DNA of 64,000 bases from Bacteroidia bacterium (GTDB lineage Bacteria > Bacteroidota > Bacteroidia > M30B66): the NCBI GenBank assembly GCA_965279035.1, contig OZ257142.1:1504001-1568000 (forward strand), read 5' to 3'. The notes under the pieces are model-generated. The model saw nothing but the letters and a program-made list of their open reading frames with translations, had not been told where the DNA came from and searched no databases. This document shows positions 3,879-46,053 of this stretch, piece by piece. A program made the translations under genes and the position numbers. Position 1 is the stretch's first letter; every line of letters begins with the position of its first letter.

Positions 3879-5498
3879 TTATGGTTGTTCCTGAACTGTT
3901 TTTCCTTTTGGATATTCGACCGTATAACTGAAGCGAATTTTCTTGCTATCGTTCGGTTTGATGGTGTAATTCCAGAAAAGTTTTCCGTATTCCTCGGTGT
4001 ATTCGGCACCTTGTTTATCGAGTAATTCTACTTTGATTTCGTTACGACGAGAAAGTGGAATTTGATCTAAGATTTCGATATCGATTGCCGCTCCTTTGTT
4101 ATTACGGATGGTAGTTTCCCACACATAACTATCTTTTTGTGTGTTCTCGAAAAATTTCTTGGATGATTTATCTACCACACGAATTCGTTTTACCACGATA
4201 CGTTCGTCGCGACCTAGAGAAATAAGCAGCGTATCGCTCGAAACGGAAGGATTTAGCTGCGTTTGTCCAACATACATATCATCGAAAAAGATGTTTGCAG
4301 GTCCTGCTAGCATGTTGTATTTTCCATAATCGGTGATTTTAGCTAACAAGAATGCCGCTTGCTCGAGTTTCGGAACCACATGGTATTTGTAGGTTGCAGG
4401 AACATTGTAGGTTTGAATCGCACAAATATGTTCTTTGCCATCGGAAGGAATATTTTGGCGCGCTTCAATTTCGAATTCAACATTGATATCACTCTCGCTC
4501 ACATTGACTTCGTAATTGTATGGATTTTCATCATCCTCAGCCACGGCATCTTTCCTCATTACTTTAGATTCAACCTGCATCATATTCATTGCTGCTCCTG
4601 CGTTTGACAACGTTGTAGCTTGTGTACGATACACGTAATAATCGATATATTTAGGAGTCATAATTGGGCGATTATTATTCATGCTTGGATTGGCTGTTGA
4701 AATTGTAATTTTCACATCTTTCCAATCGTTGCCAGTGCTTTGATATAGTTTGGCTTTATAGAAAATATTGACTGGTTGTGTGGTGTTTTGTACTTTGATA
4801 TCGTACATCGGTGCCCAGCCAGCTTGATTTACGAGATAGGTTGGATGAATGGTCAATGCTCCGCCGGTTTCGGAAGAAAAACTAAGGACAATTTCTTTTA
4901 CCGGTTCTTTTAATTTCACACCCATATCGTTGAGCTGTTGTTGAAATTTTTCTGTTTTCTCGGTGAAGCGCGCTACTTTAAGATTCAGATCGAATAACTT
5001 CTTTCTTAAATCCATTAAACGTGAACGGTAAAAATCGGCTAGGACAATGAGTTCTGCAGGTTTCAAACCTTCTTTGGTGCTCCCAAGTTTGGTGTTGTTG
5101 TCGATCAGCGCAATTTCGCCAGTCCAAACTGCGCGTTGTTCTTCGAACCACGTTAATTCTTGTTGAAATGCTTTGATGGAATCTCGAAGTCGATCGGCTT
5201 TCGGATCTTTTGGAGCTGCATTTTCTTCGGTAAAATAATTGATGCGCGTTGTTGCCGAGAGTAAAGTTGCCGCACCTTTCACACCCACTTGCAAACTTGC
5301 ATCGATCATGAATGTTGAAATTCCGGAAATAACCACATCCGAATTTCCTTTCGGAATGGTCACATTTAAAGCGCGGGATTCTTTCGCTTGATTACGGTAA
5401 ATAGTGACATCGATAATTTTTGAGCTCGCCGGAATTTCGTCGGCACGGACCGATAAGGCCGCAGTTAGCAGGAGCACGAATGCAAAACGTGATTTCAT
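3879..5498 (-). CDS. DUF4139/DUF4140 (TIGR02231, MuiA-like) exported protein
   Basis: Signal peptide, N-terminal 'IIDVTIYRNQA', a coiled coil, 'AGWAPMYDI' and 'YQSTGNDWKDVKITISTANP' motifs, and C-terminal 'IEILDQIPLS'. Confidence 0.88.
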   Translation of the reverse strand: MKSRFAFVLLLTAALSVRADEIPASSKIIDVTIYRNQAKESRALNVTIPKGNSDVVISGISTFMIDASLQVGVKGAATLLSATTRINYFTEENAAPKDPKADRLRDSIKAFQQELTWFEEQRAVWTGEIALIDNNTKLGSTKEGLKPAELIVLADFYRSRLMDLRKKLFDLNLKVARFTEKTEKFQQQLNDMGVKLKEPVKEIVLSFSSETGGALTIHPTYLVNQAGWAPMYDIKVQNTTQPVNIFYKAKLYQSTGNDWKDVKITISTANPSMNNNRPIMTPKYIDYYVYRTQATTLSNAGAAMNMMQVESKVMRKDAVAEDDENPYNYEVNVSESDINVEFEIEARQNIPSDGKEHICAIQTYNVPATYKYHVVPKLEQAAFLLAKITDYGKYNMLAGPANIFFDDMYVGQTQLNPSVSSDTLLISLGRDERIVVKRIRVVDKSSKKFFENTQKDSYVWETTIRNNKGAAIDIEILDQIPLSRRNEIKVELLDKQGAEYTEEYGKLFWNYTIKPNDSKKIRFSYTVEYPKGKTVQEQP

Positions 5499-5618: not shown

Positions 5619-6305
5619 TCAGTGCTTTTGAATGGAATTAAAGACAAGAGACTCTATAAACTCGGTCATTTTAGCCTCTTTGTTGTTGATTGTGAAGTCG
5701 GTAAGAGAAGGTAAATTTTCTTGAAAAAATTTTTGAGAATGTGCTATTTCTAACATCGATGTGGCCAATGAATGAGCAAACCCATACTGAGGATTTATTT
5801 CGAGTAATACTTTTGCTATGCGTTGACAAAGATCTTTGTATGGCTTAAAAAGTCGAGCTTGATTGTCTTCACTAACATGATGCGTTAAATACGATTTTGA
5901 ACCTTCCCAGATAGCCAATTGAAGAGCTTCTTTTTCAGGAATAAATGCAGAAAGATTCGAATTATCTACTGGTTCACGTACTAGAATTTGAATGATGTTT
6001 TTCAGTTTTTGAATAGGATCAGAAATGTTATTCATGCTGAATATGACTTTGTATTCGAGAAAGCTCCAATACCACGTAATCAGGTAGGTGAGTAGACGAT
6101 GTTTGTTTTCGAAATACCGATAAATACCGGCTTCGGTCGTTTCAATTTCGGAAGCGAGTTTTTTAAATGTGAAATTTTCGAAACCCAGTTTATTGATCAA
6201 CAGCAGGCCATGATGAACGATTTTTCTTCCTAAGACTGTCTCTTCGGGGTTTCGGAGAAAAAGTTTCTCATTCATTTTAATCTTTATTTCAAGCTCCATA
6301 AACAA
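5619..6305 (-). CDS. TetR/AcrR family transcriptional regulator
   Basis: HTH 'GFENFTFKKLASEIETTEAGIYRYFENKHRLL'; divergent from the T1SS-like operon. Confidence 0.9.
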   Translation of the reverse strand: MFMELEIKIKMNEKLFLRNPEETVLGRKIVHHGLLLINKLGFENFTFKKLASEIETTEAGIYRYFENKHRLLTYLITWYWSFLEYKVIFSMNNISDPIQKLKNIIQILVREPVDNSNLSAFIPEKEALQLAIWEGSKSYLTHHVSEDNQARLFKPYKDLCQRIAKVLLEINPQYGFAHSLATSMLEIAHSQKFFQENLPSLTDFTINNKEAKMTEFIESLVFNSIQKH

Positions 6306-6330
6306 ATTCGGTTTTATTCCGTTTTCAGCT

Positions 6331-6370
6331 AAGATAGTAAAACTATCATTTAAAGTAATGTTACTATCTT
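6331..6370. promoter_or_regulatory. Probable TetR operator(s) in the divergent intergenic region
   Basis: Perfect 10-bp inverted repeat AAGATAGTAA (6331-6340) / TTACTATCTT (6361-6370), plus the palindrome GATAGT-AAA-ACTATC (6333-6347). Confidence 0.7.
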
Positions 6371-6388
6371 TGTTTTTTGATTTGAATT

Positions 6389-8638
6389 ATGAATCAATCG
6401 AAGTTATTATTCAAGTGGTTGCTCAAAGAGCGAAACATCATCAGTAAGATATACTTGTTGGCTTTGCTTCAAGGTGCAATGTATTTGATTATTCCATTAG
6501 GAATTCAAGGTGTTGTCACATTTGTGATGGCAGGAAGTATTTCAGCATCCTTGTTTCTACTATGTGGAATTGTTGTTTTGGCAGTTTTATTTATTGGCTT
6601 ACTACAGATTTGGCAAATGCGTTTGAATGAAAGCATGCATGAAACAATCTTCGGAGATGTGGCAGCTCGCATTGGATTTTATTTGAATAATAAAAAGTTA
6701 ACTGCCGAAATACTTTCTCGTATCAATCATTTTTTTGAAGTAGTAACGCTTCAAAAAGGGATCAGTAAGATTGTATTAGATTTTTCTTTTTCCATAATCA
6801 GTATTGTATTTGGATTAATCATTTTGCCCTTTTATAACAGTTTGTTTTTCTCTTTAACATTGATTTTAGGAGCATTTTTCTATTTTATTGTTCGACATTA
6901 TGGAAAAGCTGGAATTGATTCAAATATTGAAACATCGAATCAGAAATACCGATTGGTTGAATTATTTCAAACTGAAAAGGGGATTGAGGAAAATGAAAAC
7001 TCAGCTTTTATTTCACAAGTCGATGAAGTATTGGAATCCTATTTTATTCAACGGAAAAGCCATTATGGAGTTCTCGAAAAACAATACAAAGGCATTGTAT
7101 TTTTTAAAGTCCTTTTTATTGCCATATTGTTGTTTCTCGGGGCTTTTTTAGTTCAAACAGGCGAATTAAATATTGGTCAATTTGTAGCAACGGAAATCAT
7201 CATTTTCTTGGTAATTAATTCCATCGAAAAACTGATTATTAGTTTAAATAGTTTTTATGATCTCATTACAGCAATTTATAAGATTGAAAAAATCACCGAA
7301 ACATCTCCCGAATATTCTATTTTCAGTAAGCAGTCGAAAACCCTGAAAAGTTTCGATTCTATTTATAAACGGCCTTATTCTAAAGTGATTAAGGTGTTTG
7401 TTTATTCTATGTGTTTGTGTGGTTTAGTAATTTTATTTCTACCATGGACTCAAAACGTAGAATCGACTGGTTTTGTAACAACATTAAATCCCGCCAATCG
7501 GCCCCAAACAATTACTTCACGAATATCGGGGCGTGTCGAAAAATGGTTTATACAGGATGGCGATCTGGTTAAGAAAAATGATACGATAGCTTATATATCG
7601 GAGATTAAAGAAGAATATATCGATCCTAACTTGCTTTCACGTTCGGAGTCGCAAATCCAATCGAAAGAATCGGCAATGGAATCGTTTGAGCAAAAGATAA
7701 ATTCGGTGAATGCTCAAATTGATGCCTTGAATAAATCTTTGCGAATGAAATTAGCACAAGCTCGAAATAAGATTGTTCAAGGTAAAATGAAAGTGACCAG
7801 TGATAGTACTGAGTCAATTACAGCAACAAGCAATTTGAAAGTTGCAGAAACTCAGTTAATGCGCTATGAGGATTTATTTAATAAAGGTGTTGTTTCACGA
7901 ACTGATTTGGAAAATAGGAGAGTAAAAGTTCAGGAAGCAATAGCGAAGAAAACGGCTGCTGAAAATAAATTCTTCGGTACTAAAAATGAGCTACTTAACA
8001 CCGAAATAGAACTAAATTCAATTCAACAAGAATATGCCGAAAAGCTGATGAAAGCTGATTCTGAAAAGTATTCGGTCATGTCGGCTTTATTTGAAGCAGA
8101 AGGTTCACTCACGAAACTTCAAAACCAATTGGTGAATTACAGCATGCGACAAGGTTTCTATTATGTATTGGCACCACAAGAAGGATACATTCATAATACA
8201 AAAATTCAAGGCATTGGTGAGATAGTAAAAGAAGGCGCAGCATTATGCAGTATAGTTCCATCTCAATCGGAACAAGTTGTTGAATTATATATCGATCCGG
8301 TGAATTTGCCTTTAATTCAACAAGGTCAAACGGTGCAGCTCACATTTGATGGTTGGCCTGCTTTTGTTTTTTCGGGTTGGCCAGGAATGAGTTCAGGTAC
8401 GTATCCAGCCGAAGTGATTGCTTATGACCGGGTGATTTCTCCCAATGGTAAGTTTAGGATTTTAGCAAAAGGTAAAGGAAAACGTTGGCCAGAAGCCATT
8501 CAAGTAGGTGGTGGTGTGAAAGGGTTTGCACTCTTAAGAAATGTCCCACTTGTTTACGAAATGTGGAGAAAAATCAATGGTTTTCCTCCCGAGTTTTATC
8601 AGAAATCGAAAAGCACTATTTCGGATGAAAAGAATTAA
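6389..8638 (+). CDS. Fusion of an ABC-transporter transmembrane domain to a HlyD-family membrane fusion protein; no nucleotide-binding domain
   Basis: Residues ~1-305 are an ABC membrane domain ('PLGIQ', 'GELNIGQFVATEIII', 'IEKLI'). Residues ~330-749 are HlyD ('LPWTQNV', 'RPQTITSRISGRVEKW', coiled coil, 'FDGWPA', 'NGFPPEFY'). No Walker A/B or LSGGQ motif is visible. Confidence 0.85.
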   Translation: MNQSKLLFKWLLKERNIISKIYLLALLQGAMYLIIPLGIQGVVTFVMAGSISASLFLLCGIVVLAVLFIGLLQIWQMRLNESMHETIFGDVAARIGFYLNNKKLTAEILSRINHFFEVVTLQKGISKIVLDFSFSIISIVFGLIILPFYNSLFFSLTLILGAFFYFIVRHYGKAGIDSNIETSNQKYRLVELFQTEKGIEENENSAFISQVDEVLESYFIQRKSHYGVLEKQYKGIVFFKVLFIAILLFLGAFLVQTGELNIGQFVATEIIIFLVINSIEKLIISLNSFYDLITAIYKIEKITETSPEYSIFSKQSKTLKSFDSIYKRPYSKVIKVFVYSMCLCGLVILFLPWTQNVESTGFVTTLNPANRPQTITSRISGRVEKWFIQDGDLVKKNDTIAYISEIKEEYIDPNLLSRSESQIQSKESAMESFEQKINSVNAQIDALNKSLRMKLAQARNKIVQGKMKVTSDSTESITATSNLKVAETQLMRYEDLFNKGVVSRTDLENRRVKVQEAIAKKTAAENKFFGTKNELLNTEIELNSIQQEYAEKLMKADSEKYSVMSALFEAEGSLTKLQNQLVNYSMRQGFYYVLAPQEGYIHNTKIQGIGEIVKEGAALCSIVPSQSEQVVELYIDPVNLPLIQQGQTVQLTFDGWPAFVFSGWPGMSSGTYPAEVIAYDRVISPNGKFRILAKGKGKRWPEAIQVGGGVKGFALLRNVPLVYEMWRKINGFPPEFYQKSKSTISDEKN

Positions 8639-10031
8639 TAGCTTAGTTGTACTGTTATATTTTCCTTTTTGGGGGATTTATCAAAGTTCCGAAGCTCAAG
8701 TTGTGTTGAGTTATCAGTCATTTCTAAATCATGTATTAGAAAATAATCCAATTGCCAAGCGCGCATTGAGTTTTCAACGACTGGGTGAATATCAAGTTCA
8801 ATCGGCTCGAGGAGCTTATGATCCATTTTTTGAGGGGAAACATGAAAATAAATTCTTCAATGGAATGAATTATTATTCAGTAACAAATACTGAAATAAAG
8901 CAAGCACTTTTTACCTCCAATTATTTAAAAGCAGGTTATGATTATGGAATAGGAAATTATGTCAATCCGGAACTCCAAACAAGCTCATTTGGAATTCCAT
9001 ATATTGGTATGGAAGTATCCTTATTACAAGGAATGATGATTGACAAACGAAGAGCAGATGTATTAAAATCCCGGAACTATTTAAACTATTATTCTGCTGA
9101 GAAAGACCATCAATTGAATCAATTATTACTTGAAACATCTTTGTCTTTTTTCGATTGGATGTTTAGTTTAAAACAAGTATCTCTTACAAACTATTTCTTA
9201 CAATTAGCTCAACAACGTTATCGTGGAATTGAGTCAATGGCGGCCCTTGGTGAGCGACCATCTGTTGATACGATTGAAGCCTCCTTGTTTTTACAATCTC
9301 GCCAATTAGAGCTTCAAAGTGCTGAGATAGAATATCTCAAAAATCAAAATCAAATCGCATCTTTCAATTGGCAAGCAAACGGAAGTGCATCGCAATCAAT
9401 TCGATTTATTCCAATGGATAGTTTGGAAACTTATTTCGAAAAAGCTAAATCCATCCTTGGAACTCGTTTATATCAAGACTCAATTCGAAATCCATTGATT
9501 TCTAAATACACTGCATTCCAGCATGTACTTGATATTGATAAGCGCTTGAAAAAAGAAATGATCAAGCCCAAATTAAATATGAATTACAATTTGTTGTCTA
9601 ATAATTCAGCTGCATATTCTCCATTTTTTTCAAGCAATAGTTATAAATGGGGCATACAAGTTTCCTTTCCACTTTTTTTAAGAACGCCTATTAATGAATA
9701 TCGAATTGCAGGAATTGCTAGTTCGAATAATCAATTTGAATTGCAAAATAAAAACAATGAGCTGCAATTTAAGCTAACAATGCTTTCTCAAACAATAGAT
9801 GTATTAGCTGCTCAGCTTATAAATGCAGAAAAAACAGTTTTGTATAGTCGGAAATTGGTTGAAGCCGAAAAGCAAAAATTTGAATTGGGCGAAAGTTCGC
9901 TCTTCCTGATCAATACGCGCGAAGCAAAATGGTTAGAATCTGAATTGAAATTAGCTGAATACAAATTAAAATTTATCAAATCCATTGTACAAATTATCTA
10001 TTACAAAGGGAATTTGAATTATGAGTTTTAA
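8625..10031 (+). CDS. TolC family outer membrane efflux protein
   Basis: The likely start is the ATG at 8625 (MKRINSL, signal peptide), overlapping the upstream stop. Motifs 'ARGAYDP' and 'EKQKFELGESSLFLINTRE'. Confidence 0.9.
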   Translation: MKRINSLVVLLYFPFWGIYQSSEAQVVLSYQSFLNHVLENNPIAKRALSFQRLGEYQVQSARGAYDPFFEGKHENKFFNGMNYYSVTNTEIKQALFTSNYLKAGYDYGIGNYVNPELQTSSFGIPYIGMEVSLLQGMMIDKRRADVLKSRNYLNYYSAEKDHQLNQLLLETSLSFFDWMFSLKQVSLTNYFLQLAQQRYRGIESMAALGERPSVDTIEASLFLQSRQLELQSAEIEYLKNQNQIASFNWQANGSASQSIRFIPMDSLETYFEKAKSILGTRLYQDSIRNPLISKYTAFQHVLDIDKRLKKEMIKPKLNMNYNLLSNNSAAYSPFFSSNSYKWGIQVSFPLFLRTPINEYRIAGIASSNNQFELQNKNNELQFKLTMLSQTIDVLAAQLINAEKTVLYSRKLVEAEKQKFELGESSLFLINTREAKWLESELKLAEYKLKFIKSIVQIIYYKGNLNYEF

Positions 10032-10037
10032 TTTAAA

Positions 10038-10961
10038 TTAATACGTCTGAGTCCATTGAAAATGCTCATTCACAATTCGTGTTTTATTTTCTTTAAGATG
10101 TTCTAGAAATGCTTGTGCAACATAATTATGTTTTTTACCCTTTAACCAGATTAAATTCCAACTTGTTTTTATTGGAAGTCCTTTTACCGGCAAAATCGAT
10201 AAATCACCATTCAAAATTTCATTTTTTATTCCTATAAGTGGCATAATGGAACAGCCTAACCCAGCTATTATAGCCTGTTTGACAGCTTCATTTGAGGTCA
10301 ATTCAAGTTTTTTACGGATGAATAATTGATTCTTTTGAAGGAATTGTTCCATAGATTGCCGCGTACCAGAACCAAGTTCCCGATATATTAATGCTAATTC
10401 TTCTATGAAATTGGGAGATTTCGGTTTAGAAGAAGGTGTATAATCTTTATTCCCAACTAAAAACAGTTTATTCTCCATTAATTCGAGCTTCTCTATTTGA
10501 ATTGATTCAGGTAAAATAGAGACCAAAGCTAAATCAGTTTCATTCTTTTCTAACTTTTCAAGCACTTTTGCTTTATTGGAAACATCTAAGTTTAATTCAA
10601 TTCCAGGGTGCTTTTTAAAAAATTCGCTTAATATATATGGCATAATATATTTTCCAGTTGATACTATTGAAATAGTGAGTTTACCACTTAAGAAACCTTT
10701 GTAAGCAAGCGTTTTATAATTTATAGCATATACTTCTTGAAGGATTTTTTCTGCAGCTTGTGCTATCTCATTTCCAAATTCAGTAACATATAATCTTCTT
10801 CCAATAATCTCTGTAAGTGGAATCTCAAATTGATCTTGAAAATTTTTTAATTGAATTGATACTGCTGGTTGGGTTAAGTTCAATTCCTCGGCTGCTTTAG
10901 TTATACTAAGCATCTGAGTTACTTTTAAAAAAACCTGTAATTGATGAAGTGTATATTGCAT
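10038..10961 (-). CDS. LysR family regulator, CbbR/CmpR-like
   Basis: HTH 'SITKAAEELNLTQPAVSIQLK', plus 'RELGSGTR' and 'LTSNEAVKQAIIAGLG' typical of the CbbR/CysL subgroup. Confidence 0.88.
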   Translation of the reverse strand: MQYTLHQLQVFLKVTQMLSITKAAEELNLTQPAVSIQLKNFQDQFEIPLTEIIGRRLYVTEFGNEIAQAAEKILQEVYAINYKTLAYKGFLSGKLTISIVSTGKYIMPYILSEFFKKHPGIELNLDVSNKAKVLEKLEKNETDLALVSILPESIQIEKLELMENKLFLVGNKDYTPSSKPKSPNFIEELALIYRELGSGTRQSMEQFLQKNQLFIRKKLELTSNEAVKQAIIAGLGCSIMPLIGIKNEILNGDLSILPVKGLPIKTSWNLIWLKGKKHNYVAQAFLEHLKENKTRIVNEHFQWTQTY

Positions 10962-11020: not shown

Positions 11021-11851
11021 TTAAGGATTACAGATATAACAATACATTGGATCCGCTTTTTCTCCCTTCAAATTTACTGCTTCTTCTTTTTCAAATTCAC
11101 ATGTTATACATGTATGTATTTTTGATTTTGTTTGATTACTTGGTGTTCCACATTGAGAGCATGGCATACCGGTTTTTACTCGAGTAACAGCAAAGCCTGG
11201 TGCATCACACATTGGACATAAGCTGTTTATTTTCACAATTAATTCCTTACAAACCGCTTCAATGGATTTCATTCGTGTAGGATTATGAAAGGCTCTCATA
11301 TCAGTTTCTATAAGTACTTTTCCTTCAGTCTTTTTTATTTGCTTAACCAATTTAATAATTTCAATTTCATCGTGGAGTCCTTTAACTATTTTGGAAGATG
11401 ATTTTAATATAATTCCATGACTTGGAAATTGTACTTGTTTTAAGAAATTAAATAACTCACTTTCAGATTGAATTTCTTCTGATGCATAATTGGTATTGGT
11501 GCTAATAATTCGAGCACTTATCTCCCACTTGTTTTTTTTATCAATTAGTAAAAGTATTTCTTCATTTGATGGAATAAAAAAGTAGTTAGGATGTGGTCCA
11601 AATGAACCTTCACTAGCTATTCCTAGATCACAGTTTGTCAAATTCATTGCTTATAAGCATTTTTCTCTGGCTATATTTAACGGTGAGTTTTTTCGTTCTA
11701 TTTCACCGCTGAATGTCCCAAACACATCTGAATCAAATCCCTCAGGGAGAAAGCATTTCACTTGTAAATTTTGTTCTAAAATTGGGGCAATTACTTTCTC
11801 CTTATGATGCATAGTCGCAATCACTAAGTGACGGTTTTTAAATGCAAACAT
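11021..11851 (-). pseudogene. DUF6671-like protein split by one in-frame TAA
   Basis: ORFs 11651-11851 and 11021-11647 share a frame: ...AAA TGC TTA TAA GCA ATG... Together they make ~276 aa with 'ATMHHKE', 'FGTFSGEIER', 'ASEGSFGPHP', 'ETDMRAFHNPTRM' and a CxxC-rich C-terminus. Confidence 0.8.
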
Positions 11852-12213
11852 TATTTCTTGACTATATTTACTTCAGCCTGAAGTTCAATATTACCATTCG
11901 ATTTTTCAATCTCCTTTCGAATCTCAAACAAATCTTTTTGTAAAGTCTGAATGCGTTTTTCTCTCATTTTTATGTCTTCTTCATTCAACTGATGATTGAT
12001 TTTGCTTTCATGAAATCTAATTTTTACATGAATCATCTCAGTTAATATTTGCAAGGCATCTTTTGAGCTAAAATGACCTTTAATCAACTGTTTTGTAAAG
12101 GTTTTCTTATTGTCCTTGTCCTGCAGAATAAGCTGCTTTTCCTTCAAATTCATATAGATTCTCGGTTTTAATGGTGTCAATATTTTTCTTAAATGCATGT
12201 TGAAGAATATCAA
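11851..12213 (-). CDS. Small coiled-coil hypothetical protein; true start probably downstream of 12213
   Basis: Lies between icd and DUF6671, touching the DUF6671 start codon. The listed N-terminus overlaps the end of icd by ~100 bp. Confidence 0.65.
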   Translation of the reverse strand: MIFFNMHLRKILTPLKPRIYMNLKEKQLILQDKDNKKTFTKQLIKGHFSSKDALQILTEMIHVKIRFHESKINHQLNEEDIKMREKRIQTLQKDLFEIRKEIEKSNGNIELQAEVNIVKK

Positions 12214-13546
12214 TGATTGATTCTTTACTAATGTTTAATGTATTATTGGAAACAAAGCGGCATCTCCAGTGATCGGTACAGAATGTTTCTTTAAATCCTT
12301 CTGGCCACACTTTTATTCCACGATTCGTAATCATCGATAGATGTAATTCCTGATTGTTTAATTCTGAAATCTTACCAGCTAATTCATCCGGATTAGTTCC
12401 GCCCCAATGCACAAATACATCAACACCTTTCAATTCTTTTTTAGCTGATTTCTGCCTTGTATATATTGGTAATTCAAGTTTTCCTTTTGACGAATAGTGC
12501 ACTGGTTGGAAAGTCTGTGGTTTTTTTCCTAAGTTTTTAATAACAGCTTTAGCAAACTCGAGTGTTCCAACTTGTTCGCGGCTAATTCCTTCTTTGAAAA
12601 TATCATATGTATGAATGCCATCCTCCAAAGTTTTAAGCCAAGCATTTTGAATATTCTCAGCGATTTCATTTTGTCCAATATGATTTAACATCAAAATGGC
12701 ACCTTGTAATAAGCCTGAAGGATTCGCTTTATTTTGTCCGGCTCTTCTCGGTGCTGAACCATGAATAGCTTCGAACATTGCGCATTCTTCTCCTATATTT
12801 GACGAACCTGCTAAACCTACCGACCCCGCTATTTGTGCTGCTACATCAGACAAAACATCTCCATATAAATTAGGCATTACAATCACATCAAATAATTCTG
12901 GAGTATCTGCCATTTTAGCTGCACCGATATCAATAATCCAATGCTCATTTTCTATTTCTGGATATTCCAATGCTATTTCATCAAATACTTTGTGAAACAA
13001 ACCATCTGTTTGCTTCATGATATTGTCTTTGGTAAAACACGTCACCTTTTTACGCTTGTAATGTTTCGCATATTCAAAGGCATATCGGACAATTTTTTCA
13101 CAACCAGGTCGACTAATTAACTTTAGACATTGAACAACTTCATCTGTTTGTTGATGTTCAATTCCTGCATATAAATCTTCTTCATTTTCACGTATGATTA
13201 CCAAATCCATTTTTGGATGTTTGGTTTCTACGAATGGATGTAAACTCATGCACGGACGCACATTGGCGTATAGTCCCAAGAATTTGCGAGTTGTAACGTT
13301 TAAGCTTTTATATCCTCCACCTTGAGGTGTGGTAATGGGTGCTTTTAAAAAGATTTTATTTTTACGAATGATATCCCATGATTCTTTTGATATTCCTGAA
13401 GTATTTCCTGCGAGATATACTTTTTCACCCACTTCTATTTCATCCCATTCGATTTTTGCACCTGCTGCAATTAATATATTCAATGTGGCATCCATTATTT
13501 CAGGACCAATGCCATCACCTTTTGCAATTGTAATTCGAGTTATCAT
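12107..13546 (-). CDS. icd: NADP-dependent isocitrate dehydrogenase (form with C-terminal extension)
   Basis: 'GDGIGPEI', 'KAPITTPQGGGYKSLNVT', 'KDNIMK', 'PNLYGDVLSD', 'FEAIHGSAP', and the extension 'MITNRGIKVWP...CTDHWRCRF'. Confidence 0.95.
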   Translation of the reverse strand: MITRITIAKGDGIGPEIMDATLNILIAAGAKIEWDEIEVGEKVYLAGNTSGISKESWDIIRKNKIFLKAPITTPQGGGYKSLNVTTRKFLGLYANVRPCMSLHPFVETKHPKMDLVIIRENEEDLYAGIEHQQTDEVVQCLKLISRPGCEKIVRYAFEYAKHYKRKKVTCFTKDNIMKQTDGLFHKVFDEIALEYPEIENEHWIIDIGAAKMADTPELFDVIVMPNLYGDVLSDVAAQIAGSVGLAGSSNIGEECAMFEAIHGSAPRRAGQNKANPSGLLQGAILMLNHIGQNEIAENIQNAWLKTLEDGIHTYDIFKEGISREQVGTLEFAKAVIKNLGKKPQTFQPVHYSSKGKLELPIYTRQKSAKKELKGVDVFVHWGGTNPDELAGKISELNNQELHLSMITNRGIKVWPEGFKETFCTDHWRCRFVSNNTLNISKESIIDILQHAFKKNIDTIKTENLYEFEGKAAYSAGQGQ

Positions 13547-18412: not shown

Positions 18413-19379
18413 TTGAATTAGTAGTTTAGTCAATATTGATTTCTTTAATAATTTAGGGCAATCAAAAGATACAATATGAATGCACAATTTAAAAGCCTTT
18501 CATTATTTGATTTTCAGGCTCAGTTTCCAAATGAAGAAAGTTGCTACGCATATTTGGCAAATTTGAAATGGTCAAATGGTTATTCCTGTCGACGATGTAA
18601 GAACAAAAACTTTTGTAAAGGCGTTAGTCTTTACGAGCGGCAATGCACTGTTTGCAGGCATTTAGAATCGCCAACATCTGGAACACTGTTTCACAAATGT
18701 AAATTTTCAATTCTGAAGGCTTTTTATATTGTTTTCTATGTATCAACTAGCAAGAAAGGAATAAGCAGTACTGAGCTAAGTAGAAAGCTTGATTTGGGGC
18801 AGAAGACTTGTTGGTTGTTTAAACAAAAGGTTATGAATGCAATGAAAAGCAGTAAGAAAAATCCAATGAAAGGGAAAGTTGATGTTGATGAAACATATGT
18901 TGGAGGACAAGATGATAAATCCATTGGAAGAAATGAAGGAAAGAAAAAAGTTGTAGTTCTAGCCATTGAAAAGAAATCAAGAGGTGTATCAAGATTCTAT
19001 GGAAAAGTTGTGGCGACAGCTAACAGAAAGAATTTGAGTGAATTTATGAGGGATCATATTGCTCCCAATGCGAATGTTAGAACTGATAAATGGGCTGGAT
19101 ATAAAGGCTTGGAGTCTGAATTTCCGAACCTAATTCAAGAAAAGTCTGAGAAGAAAGGAAGGAATTTTAAAGAACTCCATCGAACAATAATGATGTTTAA
19201 AGCTTGGCTTAGAGGTGTCCATCATTCTGTTAGACATTTACAGCCTTATATTGATGAGTATACATATCGATTTAACAGGCATAAAATGAATGAAGGAATC
19301 TTCGAAAATCTAATGATGAGAATGGTAAAAGCAGAACCATATACTTATAAAATGATTATTGCTTAAATGACTAATTCAA
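18413..19379 (+). mobile_element. IS1595-family insertion sequence, 967 bp
   Basis: Imperfect TIRs TTGAATTAGTAGTTTAGTCAAT / ATTGCTTAAATGACTAATTCAA. 8-bp duplication TAATTTTA at 18405-18412 and 19380-19387. Confidence 0.9.
18476..19366 (+). CDS. IS1595 family (ISXO2-like) transposase
   Basis: N-terminal Zn ribbon (CRRC...CTVC), an HTH, and the motifs 'VDETYVGG', 'VRTD' and 'YIDEYTYRFNR'. Confidence 0.95.
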   Translation: MNAQFKSLSLFDFQAQFPNEESCYAYLANLKWSNGYSCRRCKNKNFCKGVSLYERQCTVCRHLESPTSGTLFHKCKFSILKAFYIVFYVSTSKKGISSTELSRKLDLGQKTCWLFKQKVMNAMKSSKKNPMKGKVDVDETYVGGQDDKSIGRNEGKKKVVVLAIEKKSRGVSRFYGKVVATANRKNLSEFMRDHIAPNANVRTDKWAGYKGLESEFPNLIQEKSEKKGRNFKELHRTIMMFKAWLRGVHHSVRHLQPYIDEYTYRFNRHKMNEGIFENLMMRMVKAEPYTYKMIIA

Positions 19380-32535: not shown

Positions 32536-33330
32536 ATGTCTGTATCCAACGAAATTAGGCAAGTACAAGTAATACGCTATATCACTCCTTTGCGCGAAGG
32601 TGGCTCATTACCTGCTTTAGCCGAAGCCGATGATGGATTTAAATATGTTCTTAAATTCAAAGGAGCTGGACATGGTGTAAAAGCACTCATTGCCGAATTT
32701 ATTGGAGGTGAAATAGCACGTATCCTCGGCTTGAAAATTCCTGAATTGGTTTTTGCTCAACTCGATGAAGCGTTTGGACGCACCGAAGCTGATGAGGAAA
32801 TTCAAGATTTATTACAAGGAAGCCGTGGACTTAATTTAGGCATGCATTTTTTATCCGGTGCTGTTACGTTTGATCCTGTAGTAACTGAATTAGATGGTTT
32901 GTTAGCTTCTAAAATTGTTTGGTTGGATGCATTTCTTACTAATGTTGATCGCACAGCTAAGAACACCAATATGCTTATCTGGCATAAAGAATTATGGTTA
33001 ATTGATCATGGTGCAACCTTATTTTTTCATCATTCATGGGACACTTGGGAAAAGCATGCGCAAAGTCCATTTACGTATATCAAAGAACATGTTTTACTTT
33101 CTCGTGCAGAACAATTAGAATCAGTTGATAAATTATTTAAAGGAATTTTATCGAACGAAATACTACATGATTTAGTTGAGAAAATACCTGAAGAATGGTT
33201 GCAATGGGAGGGAAGCGGACTCAATCCCGAACAGACAAAAGCCGTTTATTTTCAGTTTTTGACGATACGATTAGCACATTCATCCACTTTTGTAAAAGAA
33301 GCCCTCCATGCAAGAGCCACTGGTGTATGA
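32536..33330 (+). CDS. HipA-like Ser/Thr kinase
   Basis: Gly loop 'REGGSLP', 'YVLKF', 'AEFIG', catalytic loop 'NVDRTAKNTNML' and 'LIDHG'. Confidence 0.85.
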   Translation: MSVSNEIRQVQVIRYITPLREGGSLPALAEADDGFKYVLKFKGAGHGVKALIAEFIGGEIARILGLKIPELVFAQLDEAFGRTEADEEIQDLLQGSRGLNLGMHFLSGAVTFDPVVTELDGLLASKIVWLDAFLTNVDRTAKNTNMLIWHKELWLIDHGATLFFHHSWDTWEKHAQSPFTYIKEHVLLSRAEQLESVDKLFKGILSNEILHDLVEKIPEEWLQWEGSGLNPEQTKAVYFQFLTIRLAHSSTFVKEALHARATGV

Positions 33331-33875: not shown

Positions 33876-34781
33876 ATGAGAATCATCAATAATATCAATA
33901 CCCGCGCTTGTAAAAAGTATCCCTTATTAATTCATCGTCATAACGATATGTATCGATATGGAATTCTTAAAGGTTTAGCTGAAAGTACCTTAATGAGCTA
34001 TCGGAATCAACTATCACGTATCGTTTATGAGTGCAATTGCTTTCCCGAAGAACTCAGCAATACTCAATTAGAAGAGTACATATATGAAATTGCAAAAGCC
34101 GATCGTTACAATGGAACTGCAACATTAAAAATGTTTGTCTTTGGAATCCGCTTTTATTTTCGTGCAATAAATCTAGAACAACGTGCGCTGAAATTGCCTT
34201 CATTAAAGCAATCTAACCGAATTCCAGTGGTATTGTCCGAAAATGAAATCACTCGAATCATATTAGCTCATCCCAATCCAAGAAATCGCATTGTACTTGC
34301 TACGTTGTATAGCTTAGGAATGCGTTCTAAGGAATTAGTCAATTTAAAATGGAACGATATAAATTTTGAACGAAAACAAGTAATCATCCAAAAATCAAAA
34401 GGAGGAAATTCCCGAATTTTACCTATGGGAAAGGCACTTTATAAAACGCTCAAGAAATGGAGGAAATACAGTGCAAACGAATTTGTTTTTTTCAATACTC
34501 AAACATTCGAAAAATTAACGACTTCAGCAGTAAAACATATCATAAAAACTTCTGTCCAATTTTCTGGAATTACTCGTAAAGGAATTAGTTCACATGTTTT
34601 TCGACATTCCTATGCTACTCATTTACTCGAAATGGGACTCGATATCGTCAGTGTAAAGAACTTACTCGGCCATTCCCGTATCGATAATACGATGGTGTAT
34701 TTGCACGTTGCTCAAGTCAATCCTCAAGCCGTGTTTTCACCTTTGGATGTTCTAATGGGGGAAAGAAAAAGAAAACGATAA
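33876..34781 (+). CDS. Tyrosine recombinase/integrase with N-terminal SAM-like domain
   Basis: Catalytic set appears intact: 'GMRSKE' (R), 'KSKGG' (K), 'HVFRH', 'LGHS' and 'TMVYLH' (Y); C-terminal 'SPLD'. Confidence 0.92.
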   Translation: MRIINNINTRACKKYPLLIHRHNDMYRYGILKGLAESTLMSYRNQLSRIVYECNCFPEELSNTQLEEYIYEIAKADRYNGTATLKMFVFGIRFYFRAINLEQRALKLPSLKQSNRIPVVLSENEITRIILAHPNPRNRIVLATLYSLGMRSKELVNLKWNDINFERKQVIIQKSKGGNSRILPMGKALYKTLKKWRKYSANEFVFFNTQTFEKLTTSAVKHIIKTSVQFSGITRKGISSHVFRHSYATHLLEMGLDIVSVKNLLGHSRIDNTMVYLHVAQVNPQAVFSPLDVLMGERKRKR

Positions 34782-44682: not shown

Positions 44683-46053
44683 CACACCCGTCCAAGACGT
44701 TTGTATAACGAAAATACAATCCTGATTTGATGCGAGATTACTCATCAAAGAACGCTCTTTTGAAAATTAAACCCTCTATAATTTAAAAAAGGGACATTTG
44801 TAATTCCAGTTTATCAATTTCGTCATCATCTAAAAAGGGTTTATCAAGCCATTTTTTGAGGTCAATTTTCACAAAGAGATTTAATCGAATAAAGGACACC
44901 AAATTTGAGAGGTGCCAAGAGTGTTTTGCTTCCTTTTGAAGTGTCTTTAAAAGCAGTATGGTGATTAGTGCTGTCCAAATCTGTATCAGAACAGCATTCA
45001 TGCTGGTTCCTATGAAAGACTTGATTTTCAGGTGTGTTTTGATCTCCTTGAAGAACGATTCGATGCTCCATCTACGTTTATATAGTTCTGAAATGGTCGA
45101 TGCTGTCCAAGAAAAATTGTTTGTAAGAAGTTCAAGATATATCTGTTGTTCTTCATCCCAGATCTGAACCATTCGGAGCTTTTGCGGGTATTTTTCTTTT
45201 GATTGAGGTAAACTCAAAAAGCCTTTCCAGTCGTATTGCAAGTCTGGATTTGCTTCATCGGTTGGGCTCTTAGTTCGCTCATAAAGTTCAAACTGAATGT
45301 TTTCTTTTCCTCGAATAACAAAGAATACTCCTTGTTCATCTAATTTTCTCATCCAGTTAAAATCGACATATCCTCTATCAGCTACAACAATGCTTCCTGT
45401 GGGAAATTCAATATCATGTGCTGCATTTACATCGTGCTTTTTGCCATCACTCAAATCAGCAAAAACGGGCATACAGCCGTCAAAGTCAAGGACTGTGTGA
45501 AGTTTTATAGCTCCCTTCTTCTTTCGAAATAGTGCCCAGTCGAACACTTTAAGACAAAGGTCAATCGTGGTTGAATCGAGCAGATAGATTTTACGTTTGG
45601 GAAGCAGCTTTCGGCTTGTTTTTAAGGTTGATTCAAACTGCTCATACAAGTTAAAATACATCGCTTGAAACAGCTCCCAGTTGCGATGTTGGTTATTATA
45701 TGCCAACGATGATCGCCTCATGGCTTTTGACACTCCCAGATGATTTAAATCGCCTGTTGCTGATCGCATTCCATTGCAAACGTCATTTAAGCTATTAGAC
45801 TTGGAAAACTGGCAAAAAACCATTGTCACAAAGTGAGACCAAGCATCATTGCCTTTACAATGTTTATTGGACTCAAACTTTTCTACTAGTTTATTGAAAG
45901 AATCTCGCTTAATTTTTTGGAATATCTGAGCAAATAATGTGATCTTCATGCCGGAGTTGGTTTATGTTTTTGTGTCGTAACTCAAACATACCGGATTTAA
46001 TCCGGACCAACTCTATTTTTTTACCCTATTTTAAAACGTCTTGGACGGGTGTG
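44683..46053 (-). mobile_element. IS4-family insertion sequence, 1371 bp
   Basis: Perfect 20-bp TIRs CACACCCGTCCAAGACGTTT; 9-bp duplication ATAATTAAT at 44674-44682 and 46054-46062. Confidence 0.95.
44783..45949 (-). CDS. IS4 family transposase (DUF4372 + DDE_Tnp_1)
   Basis: 'LLDSTTI', 'KLH', 'ADRGY' and the YREK motif 'YKRRWSIESFFKEIK'. Confidence 0.95.
   Translation of the reverse strand: MKITLFAQIFQKIKRDSFNKLVEKFESNKHCKGNDAWSHFVTMVFCQFSKSNSLNDVCNGMRSATGDLNHLGVSKAMRRSSLAYNNQHRNWELFQAMYFNLYEQFESTLKTSRKLLPKRKIYLLDSTTIDLCLKVFDWALFRKKKGAIKLHTVLDFDGCMPVFADLSDGKKHDVNAAHDIEFPTGSIVVADRGYVDFNWMRKLDEQGVFFVIRGKENIQFELYERTKSPTDEANPDLQYDWKGFLSLPQSKEKYPQKLRMVQIWDEEQQIYLELLTNNFSWTASTISELYKRRWSIESFFKEIKTHLKIKSFIGTSMNAVLIQIWTALITILLLKTLQKEAKHSWHLSNLVSFIRLNLFVKIDLKKWLDKPFLDDDEIDKLELQMSLF

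Follow-up and report, generated by a model that had tools for sequence, protein, structure and literature searches.

The 64,000-nt stretch of DNA analysed in this work, hereafter called the window (contig OZ257142.1 of a Bacteroidia bacterium, positions 1,504,001 to 1,568,000), carries a single 749-aa gene (6389–8638, plus strand) in which the transmembrane domain (TMD) of an ATP-binding cassette (ABC) exporter and a HlyD-type periplasmic adaptor share one open reading frame (ORF), and in which no nucleotide-binding domain (NBD) is present. This gene is a real, conserved variant of the tripartite pump, and its evolutionary origin is well supported. The best overall explanation, which we hold to be somewhat better than an even bet, is a TetR-controlled tripartite exporter without an ATPase of its own, in which the fused protein would provide the inner-membrane and periplasmic part and a TolC-type protein encoded downstream would provide the outer membrane part. 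Its architecture and origin, as described below, can be regarded as very likely.

The protein is confirmed as a six-helix ABC-exporter TMD joined to a complete HlyD adaptor, with seven transmembrane (TM) helices in total. A first-pass annotation, made from the sequence alone, had already described one uninterrupted frame joining the two parts and followed by TolC, and the ORFs and the Pfam matches agree with that description. Residues 1–310 (6389–7318, plus strand) form a type I exporter TMD with six long helices, recognized by Pfam, BLASTP, phmmer, AlphaFold2 (AF2) and Foldseek. The ABC_membrane profile (PF00664) matches residues 22–276 along profile positions 5–271 of 274, at 24.7 bits against a gathering cut-off of 28 bits. 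Homology of this TMD to a TMD+NBD protein is found with E 5e-36 in BLASTP, and phmmer against a representative library gives E values down to 1e-55. Residues 311–349 (7319–7435, plus strand) contain the fusion junction, a cytoplasmic linker (311–331) and the seventh TM helix (332–349), which is the HlyD anchor. The remaining residues 350–749 with the stop codon (7436–8638, plus strand) form the periplasmic HlyD or membrane fusion protein (MFP) part, and Biotin_lipoyl_2 (373–403), HlyD_D23 (541–663) and HlyD_3 (593–654) all match there above their gathering cut-offs. The whole set of MFP elements was found, namely anchor, lipoyl domain, beta-barrel and an alpha-hairpin whose arms are each about 85 residues long.

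The full-length AF2 model, with a predicted local distance difference test (pLDDT) value of 70.7, shows the six long helices, the seventh at 332–349 and the hairpin arms at 413–498 and 504–582; its cytoplasmic loops sit between helices 52–101 and 106–148 and between helices 151–194 and 206–257. When searched with Foldseek, this model returned only adaptors, with EmrA (4tko, E 5.5e-17) as the best match and 8zar, MacA and HlyD (5c21, 5c22) also found. Since that search was dominated by the adaptor half, the TMD was modelled and searched separately. The TMD-only model (pLDDT 79.8, predicted template-modelling score 0.73) matched PCAT1 (E 2.2e-7), ComA, TmrAB (TMq 0.74) and HlyB (8dck_A, E 2.3e-6, TMq 0.69).

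The fused form is not restricted to this genome. In a search of 5.8 billion proteins, 8000 were scored and 1716 of these are relatives at E≤1e-3; the best 120 relatives listed are 63–100% identical to the query and come from many assemblies, 117 of them being 745–756 aa long. At NCBI, the relatives are named only 'HlyD family efflux transporter periplasmic adaptor subunit', while at JGI they bear the name 'adhesin transport system membrane fusion protein'; HlyD-only labels of this kind hide both the membrane domain and the missing motor. A search for relatives of 1312–3745 aa, the size range of a triple fusion of TMD, NBD and HlyD, gave none, which is weak evidence. The first-pass annotation had proposed to check the junction against reads. 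Logan contigs from four runs span 6300–8700 in one piece with no differences, including the junction at about 7310–7346. No RNA data set was listed among the sequencing runs, which has no bearing on expression. These runs represent one sample, perhaps the source of the DNA itself, and do not amount to independent proof. The junction is considered real because it is shared by the 120 relatives listed, which come from many assemblies, a stronger argument than the run contigs.

Conservation was compared along the protein in 58 fused sequences. The mean pairwise identity is 0.68 in the TMD (1–310), 0.45 in the linker (311–345) and 0.785 in the HlyD part (346–735), and the corresponding nonsynonymous divergence (dN) is 0.24–0.39, 0.46–0.64 and 0.14–0.27. 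With two exceptions, all pairs are saturated at synonymous sites (proportion of synonymous differences, pS, 0.68–0.89), so that dN/dS can be read only in the style of an upper bound, and the sole finite value for the TMD is 0.134. Judged from these alignments, the TMD is under purifying selection that is weaker than the selection on the adaptor. All 57 sequences compared have the same membrane motifs PLGIQ, LQKGxSK and NIGQF, and E81, E269 and K281 are likewise invariant in them. Conserved fusions combined with a low dN/dS of the TMD had been named beforehand as signs of a genuine system; the fused family is conserved, with purifying selection on its TMD. The opposite outcome, in which all close relatives would have kept separate genes, did not occur, as the close relatives are fused and split forms appear only at or below 48% identity. 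A recent lesion, a pseudogene or an assembly artefact without function would agree with an architecture that arose by deletion; nevertheless, the uniform length of 117 of the 120 listed relatives from many assemblies, the single old clade described below, the purifying selection, the lack of stop codons and the undisturbed passage of the contigs of the four runs across the junction leave this explanation with a practically negligible probability.

The origin of the gene can be followed in the split operons of related bacteria. Among 17 related genomic loci (loci, proteins and genomes are cited here by L, P and G numbers), four are fused, and the other 13, at 42–48% identity, match over about 750 nt more than the query. 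In the split loci L004 and L017, a 557–566-aa protein with ABC_membrane and ABC_tran domains is followed by a 451–456-aa HlyD protein and then by an outer membrane efflux protein (OEP), with a TetR gene upstream in L017 as well. Residues 7–308 of the window protein align with residues 14–324 of the 557-aa ABC protein of L004 (31% identity), and residues 320–748 align with residues 19–449 of the adjacent HlyD protein (45% identity); the NBD of the L004 protein (residues about 325–557) is absent from the fused protein in this alignment. By this comparison, the fusion is a split operon minus the whole NBD and the first ~18 residues of HlyD. The end of the TMD in the fused protein coincides with the point where the NBD of the relatives starts. 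One ancient in-frame deletion of these parts welded TM6 to the HlyD anchor through a cytoplasmic linker of ~25 residues.

A search with the TMD only against 1.84 billion representatives gave 1671 matches. The best non-self matches are TMD+NBD proteins of ~540–580 aa, or of ~705–765 aa with an extra N-terminal domain. The same search also gave P0122 (765 aa), a fused protein that is more divergent, as well as several TMD-only proteins of ~317–338 aa, which end just past TM6. Two odd frames of 1010 and 1261 aa, found in G127 and G122, turned out on inspection to be ordinary split operons.

The relationships were examined on a tree of 41 rows built from concatenated TMD and HlyD sequences (704 columns; IQ-TREE quick search, LG+G4), from which L003 and L008 (partial), L013 and L016 (truncated ORFs) and L006, L009 and L036 (duplicates) were omitted. 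All 11 fused rows form one clade, with a Shimodaira–Hasegawa-like approximate likelihood ratio test (SH-aLRT) value of 100 and a stem of 0.43, and this clade sits within a larger one that holds 28 rows of short split forms (SH-aLRT 100). A single fused clade nested in split operons points to one old in-frame loss of the NBD for all fused forms. The NBD-less state nevertheless requires two changes on the tree, since a second case was found in L018 (genome G183). There, a 334-aa TMD-only gene (ABC_membrane, 43 bits) occurs without any fusion; it shares 8 nt with the start of a separate gene for a 454-aa HlyD protein, and TolC comes next. Of 201 genomes sampled evenly from the phylum, 43 carry the system, and it is fused in the centre genome only. 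In the order of G003 (24 genomes), four genomes carry the fused form, 16 the split form, four have no match and none has both. Such a distribution fits the replacement of the split operon by the fusion within a sub-clade. The first-pass annotation had offered a choice between a new exporter architecture and an in-frame deletion of the NBD, and each half proved partly right: the alignment supports a deletion, and its product is an old architecture of single origin maintained by selection, not a lesion.

The NBDs of the split relatives are themselves far from canonical. Motif columns were set by aligning the ABC protein of L004 to the NBDs of P-glycoprotein. In this protein, Walker A reads GKAT (canonical GKST), the Q-loop residue is Thr (Gln), the signature is LSYTV (LSGGQ), Walker B with the catalytic Glu is KD (DE) and the H-loop residue is Gln (His). 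Among 43 split sequences, LSGGQ is found in none, DE in three and Walker A in 26; His occupies the canonical H-loop column in none of them, and two have His one column earlier. LSGGQ is likewise missing from all 36 rows of an alignment that includes the long forms (A4). As a control, six ordinary ABC exporters from fused-form genomes were treated in the same way, and they show LSGGQ or LSAGQ in 6/6, DE in 5, His in 6 and Walker A in 6. Five outgroup operons have no LSGGQ (the nearest being LSTGQ and LSTGE), and DE, His and Walker A are kept in all five, while in the 28 ingroup rows LSGGQ is found in 0, DE in 1, H-loop His in 1 and Walker A in 18. To judge from these motifs, the decay of the NBD follows the tree, and its loss is the end point of a family-wide process. 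Half-transporters are expected to act as homodimers, so that both ATP sites would be degenerate in the split forms. The parent ABC family had lost the canonical motifs of ATP hydrolysis before the NBD was removed, and a second lineage dropped the NBD without fusion.

The surface on which an NBD would dock has been eroded as well. In this fold, intracellular loops 1 and 2 (ICL1 and ICL2) carry the coupling helices of the NBD. When 14 fused sequences are aligned with 43 split ones, each of the two cytoplasmic loops is ~5 residues shorter in the fused forms, and the ICL2 motif WLEEiARniktFK, conserved in split forms, is lost in the fused clade. Within the fused TMD, conservation is lowest (0.35) in the ICL2 remnant, residues 196–210 (6974–7018, plus strand). 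Conserved NBD-contacting coupling loops are therefore a feature that the fused clade no longer has. The loop indels vary by fused lineage; P0122 retains a full ICL1, and the ICL2 gap of L002 lies elsewhere. Such variation indicates that the erosion came after the loss of the NBD. Several TMD-only proteins show similar loop erosion.

One way to restore ATP-driven transport would be a separately encoded NBD that docks on the fused TMD in trans, and ABC systems with separately encoded NBDs are common; in addition, every genome searched contains many other ABC proteins. Evidence against such a partner comes from several sides. The coupling-helix loops are shortened, with lineage-specific indels and without the split-form motif, and the lost NBD was already non-canonical in the parent family. 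Neither the fused ORF nor any of the 52 scanned ORFs of at least 150 aa in the 64-kb window (a 53rd listed ORF lies nested within a scanned one) showed an ABC_tran domain (PF00005), so the earlier statement that the window contains no recognizable ABC ATPase holds, and five further fused loci (L001, L002, L003, L008 and L027) showed none next to the fused gene. Similarly, four fused-form metagenome-assembled genomes (MAGs), which are incomplete assemblies of 2.1–3.4 Mb, yielded no close copy of the lost NBD: the split ABC protein strongly matches only the fused TMD in them, and their other ABC proteins are 20–30% identical to it. A trans-acting ATPase, which the first-pass annotation had listed among its options, is disfavoured by the eroded loops and the missing NBD copy, and we regard it as quite unlikely. 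It is likely, on the contrary, that the exporter works without its own or a dedicated ATPase.

The 1:1 fusion of TMD and adaptor had been thought to clash with the stoichiometry of type I secretion systems (T1SS). That objection was mistaken, as the inner-membrane complex of HlyB and HlyD consists of three HlyB dimers and six HlyD subunits, a 6:6 ratio, according to a preprint (bioRxiv 10.1101/2025.05.27.656419, citing Zhao, Lee and Chen 2022). With this ratio, a 1:1 fusion is compatible with an HlyBD-like assembly under one TolC trimer. By homology, six fusion protomers would pair into three TMD dimers of the ABC type, beneath a hexamer of HlyD parts docked on the TolC trimer. Two copies of residues 1–330 were predicted as a pair with a score of 0.67, against 0.00 for the best of three controls, which possibly reflects the model's memory of solved ABC exporters; of the proteins solved as pairs, 20 of 30 reached the mark used for pairing, as did 1 of 23 solved as single chains. 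At least 88% of the contacts agree between the dimer runs, and the pLDDT of the partner is at least 75. In the predicted interface, TM2 faces TM5 of the other copy, with E81 and E269 included.

If transport is not driven by an ATPase of the protein itself, the likeliest driver would be the proton-motive force acting on the TMD dimer. Two systems suggest this by analogy. LmrA-MD, a form without the NBD, acts in proton-coupled symport that depends on Glu314 in TM6 (PMC2704374), and SbmA, with an ABC-like TMD, is described as driven by the proton-motive force (PMC13316013). The invariant, membrane-embedded Glu269 (TM6) and Glu81 (TM2) would be the candidate coupling residues. Proton coupling specifically is given a little less than an even chance. 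Taken as a whole, the family may represent a natural transition from primary to secondary transport in stages, in which hydrolysis was lost, the NBD was lost at least twice and the bare TMD was welded to an adaptor; this view is put forward tentatively, as one that may well prove wrong.

The TMD might also be no more than a membrane scaffold, with the adaptor serving another inner-membrane transporter of the ABC, major facilitator superfamily (MFS) or resistance-nodulation-division (RND) type, or forming a passive TolC-linked conduit. The eroded cytoplasmic loops and the faster evolution of the TMD relative to the adaptor speak for such a role, as do the adaptor's top structural match, EmrA, itself the adaptor of an MFS pump, and the RND pump with its own adaptor that stands just upstream of the NBD-less module in L018. 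On the other hand, the TMD keeps its 68% mean identity and invariant intramembrane residues that are common to transporting relatives. This constraint goes beyond the need for an anchor, as HlyD has an anchor helix of its own (332–349). The TMD is still predicted as an ABC-type dimer, with the reservation about model memory, and no second transporter gene is conserved next to the fused gene in the window, L001, L002, L003, L008 or L027. In view of this, the scaffold is considered rather improbable, and a transporting TMD is preferred.

Several observations weigh against the ATPase-free exporter proposed here. The Pfam match of the TMD falls under its gathering cut-off, and the TMD sequence has no match in the PDB at E≤0.01. 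The TMD is less conserved than the adaptor, and E81 and E269 are also present in NBD-bearing relatives, hence they are no signature of the NBD-less state. The tree is a quick search under a single-matrix model with seven loci omitted, and the motif counts hinge on how MAFFT aligns divergent NBDs. The P-loop is kept in 26/43 and 18/28 of the split-family NBDs; the parent family may still bind nucleotide and perhaps hydrolyse it slowly, and may not yet have been ATP-independent. Loop erosion would agree equally with a TMD that serves only as a scaffold, and an unrelated ATPase or another inner-membrane pump may act in trans, given the incompleteness of the MAGs. Finally, energy source and substrate are both conjectural, and proton coupling is proposed by analogy.

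Expression of the operon is predicted to be under the control of a TetR-family repressor, whose gene (5619–6305, minus strand) is divergent from the pump operon (TetR_N, E 2.8e-7, Pfam). The longest form of this ORF has 228 aa from a TTG codon; the probable start is the ATG at 6275 (MNEKLF...). A TetR gene occupies the equivalent position in L002, L003, L017 and L019. The shared intergenic region holds the operator and promoter region (6331–6372), with palindrome arms of 15 nt at 6331–6345 and 6356–6370 that are 87% complementary, in line with the palindromic operator reported earlier. The predicted TetR site, GATAGTA-N-TACTATC, lies at 6333–6347 as the core of this region, where the palindrome reads GATAGT-AAA-ACTATC. 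A second, related half-site, TTACTATCTT, at 6361–6370 overlaps a promoter-like TAnnTTTG box (6365–6372), which we take to be the Bacteroidota -7 consensus. The core palindrome is conserved 5' of the fused gene in L001, L003 and L027; L002 has the variant AATAGTATTACTATT there, and a degenerate form lies 5' of the tetR gene heading the split operon in L019. An operator shared by fused and split loci indicates that TetR control is ancestral. A divergent TetR gene with a palindrome in the shared intergenic region gives this locus the predicted layout of a TetR-regulated efflux operon.

Control by TetR and an operator is typical of small-molecule efflux. The substrate would probably not be a secreted protein but a small molecule, hydrophobic or amphipathic, that the TetR repressor senses. 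The alternative, type I secretion of an adhesin or RTX-like protein, draws on the top fold matches of the TMD (PCAT1, ComA and HlyB are peptide or protein exporters), on the adhesin-transport label of JGI and on the best NCBIfam match, type_I_hlyD (TIGR01843). That match, however, reaches only 79.4 bits against a cut-off of 208.65, which places the protein outside the T1SS adaptor subfamily. Of the parts of a T1SS, the adaptor and a TolC-type factor are found in one operon, and the ATP-hydrolysing ABC component that would translocate a polypeptide is lacking. The operon stands under a ligand-type TetR with a conserved operator, no RTX or adhesin families were found beside it or among the scanned ORFs of the window (although substrates can be encoded elsewhere), and the large neighbouring proteins bear sorting domains of the type IX secretion system, a mark of membership in the Bacteroidota. 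Protein secretion is thus judged very unlikely, and small-molecule export remains the preferred function.

The outer membrane partner is encoded by the TolC-type gene at 8625–10031 (plus strand), which is matched by OEP in two stretches (E 1.2e-27). Its longest ORF starts at 8541; the likelier start is the ATG at 8625 (MKRINS...), with an overlap of 14 nt with the stop of the fusion. An OEP gene lies 3' of the fused or split HlyD in every locus with a domain-scanned downstream ORF (L002, L004, L017 and L018), and in L001, L003, L008, L019 and L020 a downstream ORF of similar size is present, identified by size and position only.

The closest known arrangement is the split tetR-abc-hlyD-tolC operon of Bacteroidota, as in Nonlabens ulvanivorans (L004), Neolewinella marina (L017) and G127 (L019). 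It contains homologues of every part, with TMDs 31–40% and HlyD proteins 41–50% identical to the fused protein, TolC next, and TetR with a related operator. In contrast to the fused form, a non-canonical NBD of 230–250 aa stands between TM6 and a separate HlyD, and the loops are of full length with the ICL2 motif. No characterization of these operons was found in the literature searched. HlyB/HlyD/TolC of E. coli (PDB 7SGR, 8DCK) is alike in its ABC exporter TMD, HlyD-type adaptor, TolC and 6:6 ratio; HlyB, however, contains an active NBD as well as a C39-like domain and serves to secrete a protein, whereas the fused protein has neither domain and is TetR-controlled. EmrAB-TolC is a proton-driven small-molecule pump with a long-hairpin adaptor and TolC, and the adaptor half of the fused protein finds its best structural match in EmrA (4tko and 8zar, as given above), but the inner-membrane transporter of EmrAB-TolC belongs to the MFS and its adaptor is a separate polypeptide.

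Two further systems may resemble the fused protein in mechanism. LmrA-MD, the Lactococcus LmrA without its NBD, is an ABC TMD homodimer that transports in the NBD-less state (PMC2704374); it is a laboratory truncation with no adaptor or outer-membrane partner. SbmA and BacA (SLiPT) are natural NBD-less, ABC-TMD-like transporters energized by the proton gradient (PMC13316013); they differ in being importers and not tripartite. Since neither SbmA_BacA nor ABC_membrane_2 of Pfam matches the fused protein at E≤0.01, this is an analogy and not a membership. A description of an ABC-TMD–HlyD fusion or of a family with degenerate NBDs was found neither in the full-text literature (subscription-only papers being outside its scope) nor in the first part of the review PMC8277102.

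Tripartite pumps are classed by their inner-membrane engine, ABC (ATP) on one side and RND or MFS (protons) on the other, and an ABC-fold engine without an ATPase fits neither class. If the proposed reading is true, it would represent a new energetic class of envelope-spanning pump, ABC-fold and proton-driven, which self-assembles in a 6:3 ratio from two proteins. The related operons appear to offer a graded natural series, from a near-canonical NBD to a degenerate NBD, to no NBD and to an NBD-less TMD fused to its adaptor. This series could serve to test the disputed claim, made for LmrA and MsbA, that ABC membrane domains can act as ion-coupled secondary transporters. Additionally, the obligate 1:1 fusion would lend independent genetic support to the 6:6 architecture of HlyB/HlyD, and the fusion with TolC would make a convenient two-protein target for structure determination.

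Some observations on the relatives are recorded separately. In the Protein atlas, the nearest cluster belongs to Bacteroidota (score 0.91), and a further lead (0.77) is a Bacillota cluster of 58 members with ABC_membrane in 97% and YknX-type adaptor beta-barrels in 100%, which may be an independent TMD-adaptor fusion in Gram-positives. The fused protein P0100 is labelled as coming from a Burkholderiales MAG, and the split operon L011 lies on a contig labelled as a Gammaproteobacteria MAG; both group with Bacteroidota sequences, and mis-binning or transfer is possible. In L018 (G183), an ORF at 7893–9935 (minus strand), reaching the edge of the L018 segment, contains the C-terminal part of an RND protein (ACR_tran, profile 751–1020) and an in-frame OEP/TolC-type domain (residues 499–679), and may be an RND–outer-membrane-factor fusion; downstream of it comes a gene for a 375-aa adaptor, with the NBD-less TMD-HlyD-TolC module next door. 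The long split ABC proteins of ~705–801 aa (P0145, P0159, P0198, P0256 and L020:5008–7413, minus strand) have an N-terminal region of ~170–215 residues with no Pfam match, which is not recognizable as a C39 peptidase domain. In two Crocinitomicaceae MAGs (L016:6956–8158 and L013:9121–10044), the ABC ORF ends at 400 aa within the NBD and the HlyD ORF has 307 aa; these short ORFs could be frameshifts of long-read assembly or further decay of the NBD.

Downstream of the pump operon, a convergent LysR-family regulator gene (10038–10961, minus strand; HTH_1 and LysR_substrate), syntenic in L001, L003 and L008, is followed by genes for a DUF6671 protein (11021–11647, minus strand) and isocitrate dehydrogenase (12107–13546, minus strand). 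LysR and isocitrate dehydrogenase are found 3' of the operon in the same three loci, and a DUF6671 homologue was noted in L003 only; this neighbourhood is probably plain synteny. Upstream of the TetR gene, a DUF4140/DUF4139 protein is encoded at 3879–5498 (minus strand). Its homologue at the syntenic position in L003 (4126–5909, minus strand) is broken into ORFs of 351 and 229 aa, and a masked stretch lies inside the fused gene of L003. The window also contains mobile elements, namely an IS1595-type transposase (18476–19366), a DDE_Tnp_1/DUF4372 transposase (44783–45949) and a phage-type integrase (33876–34781) that adjoins a gene for a HipA_2-like kinase (32536–33330), and none of them flanks the pump operon.

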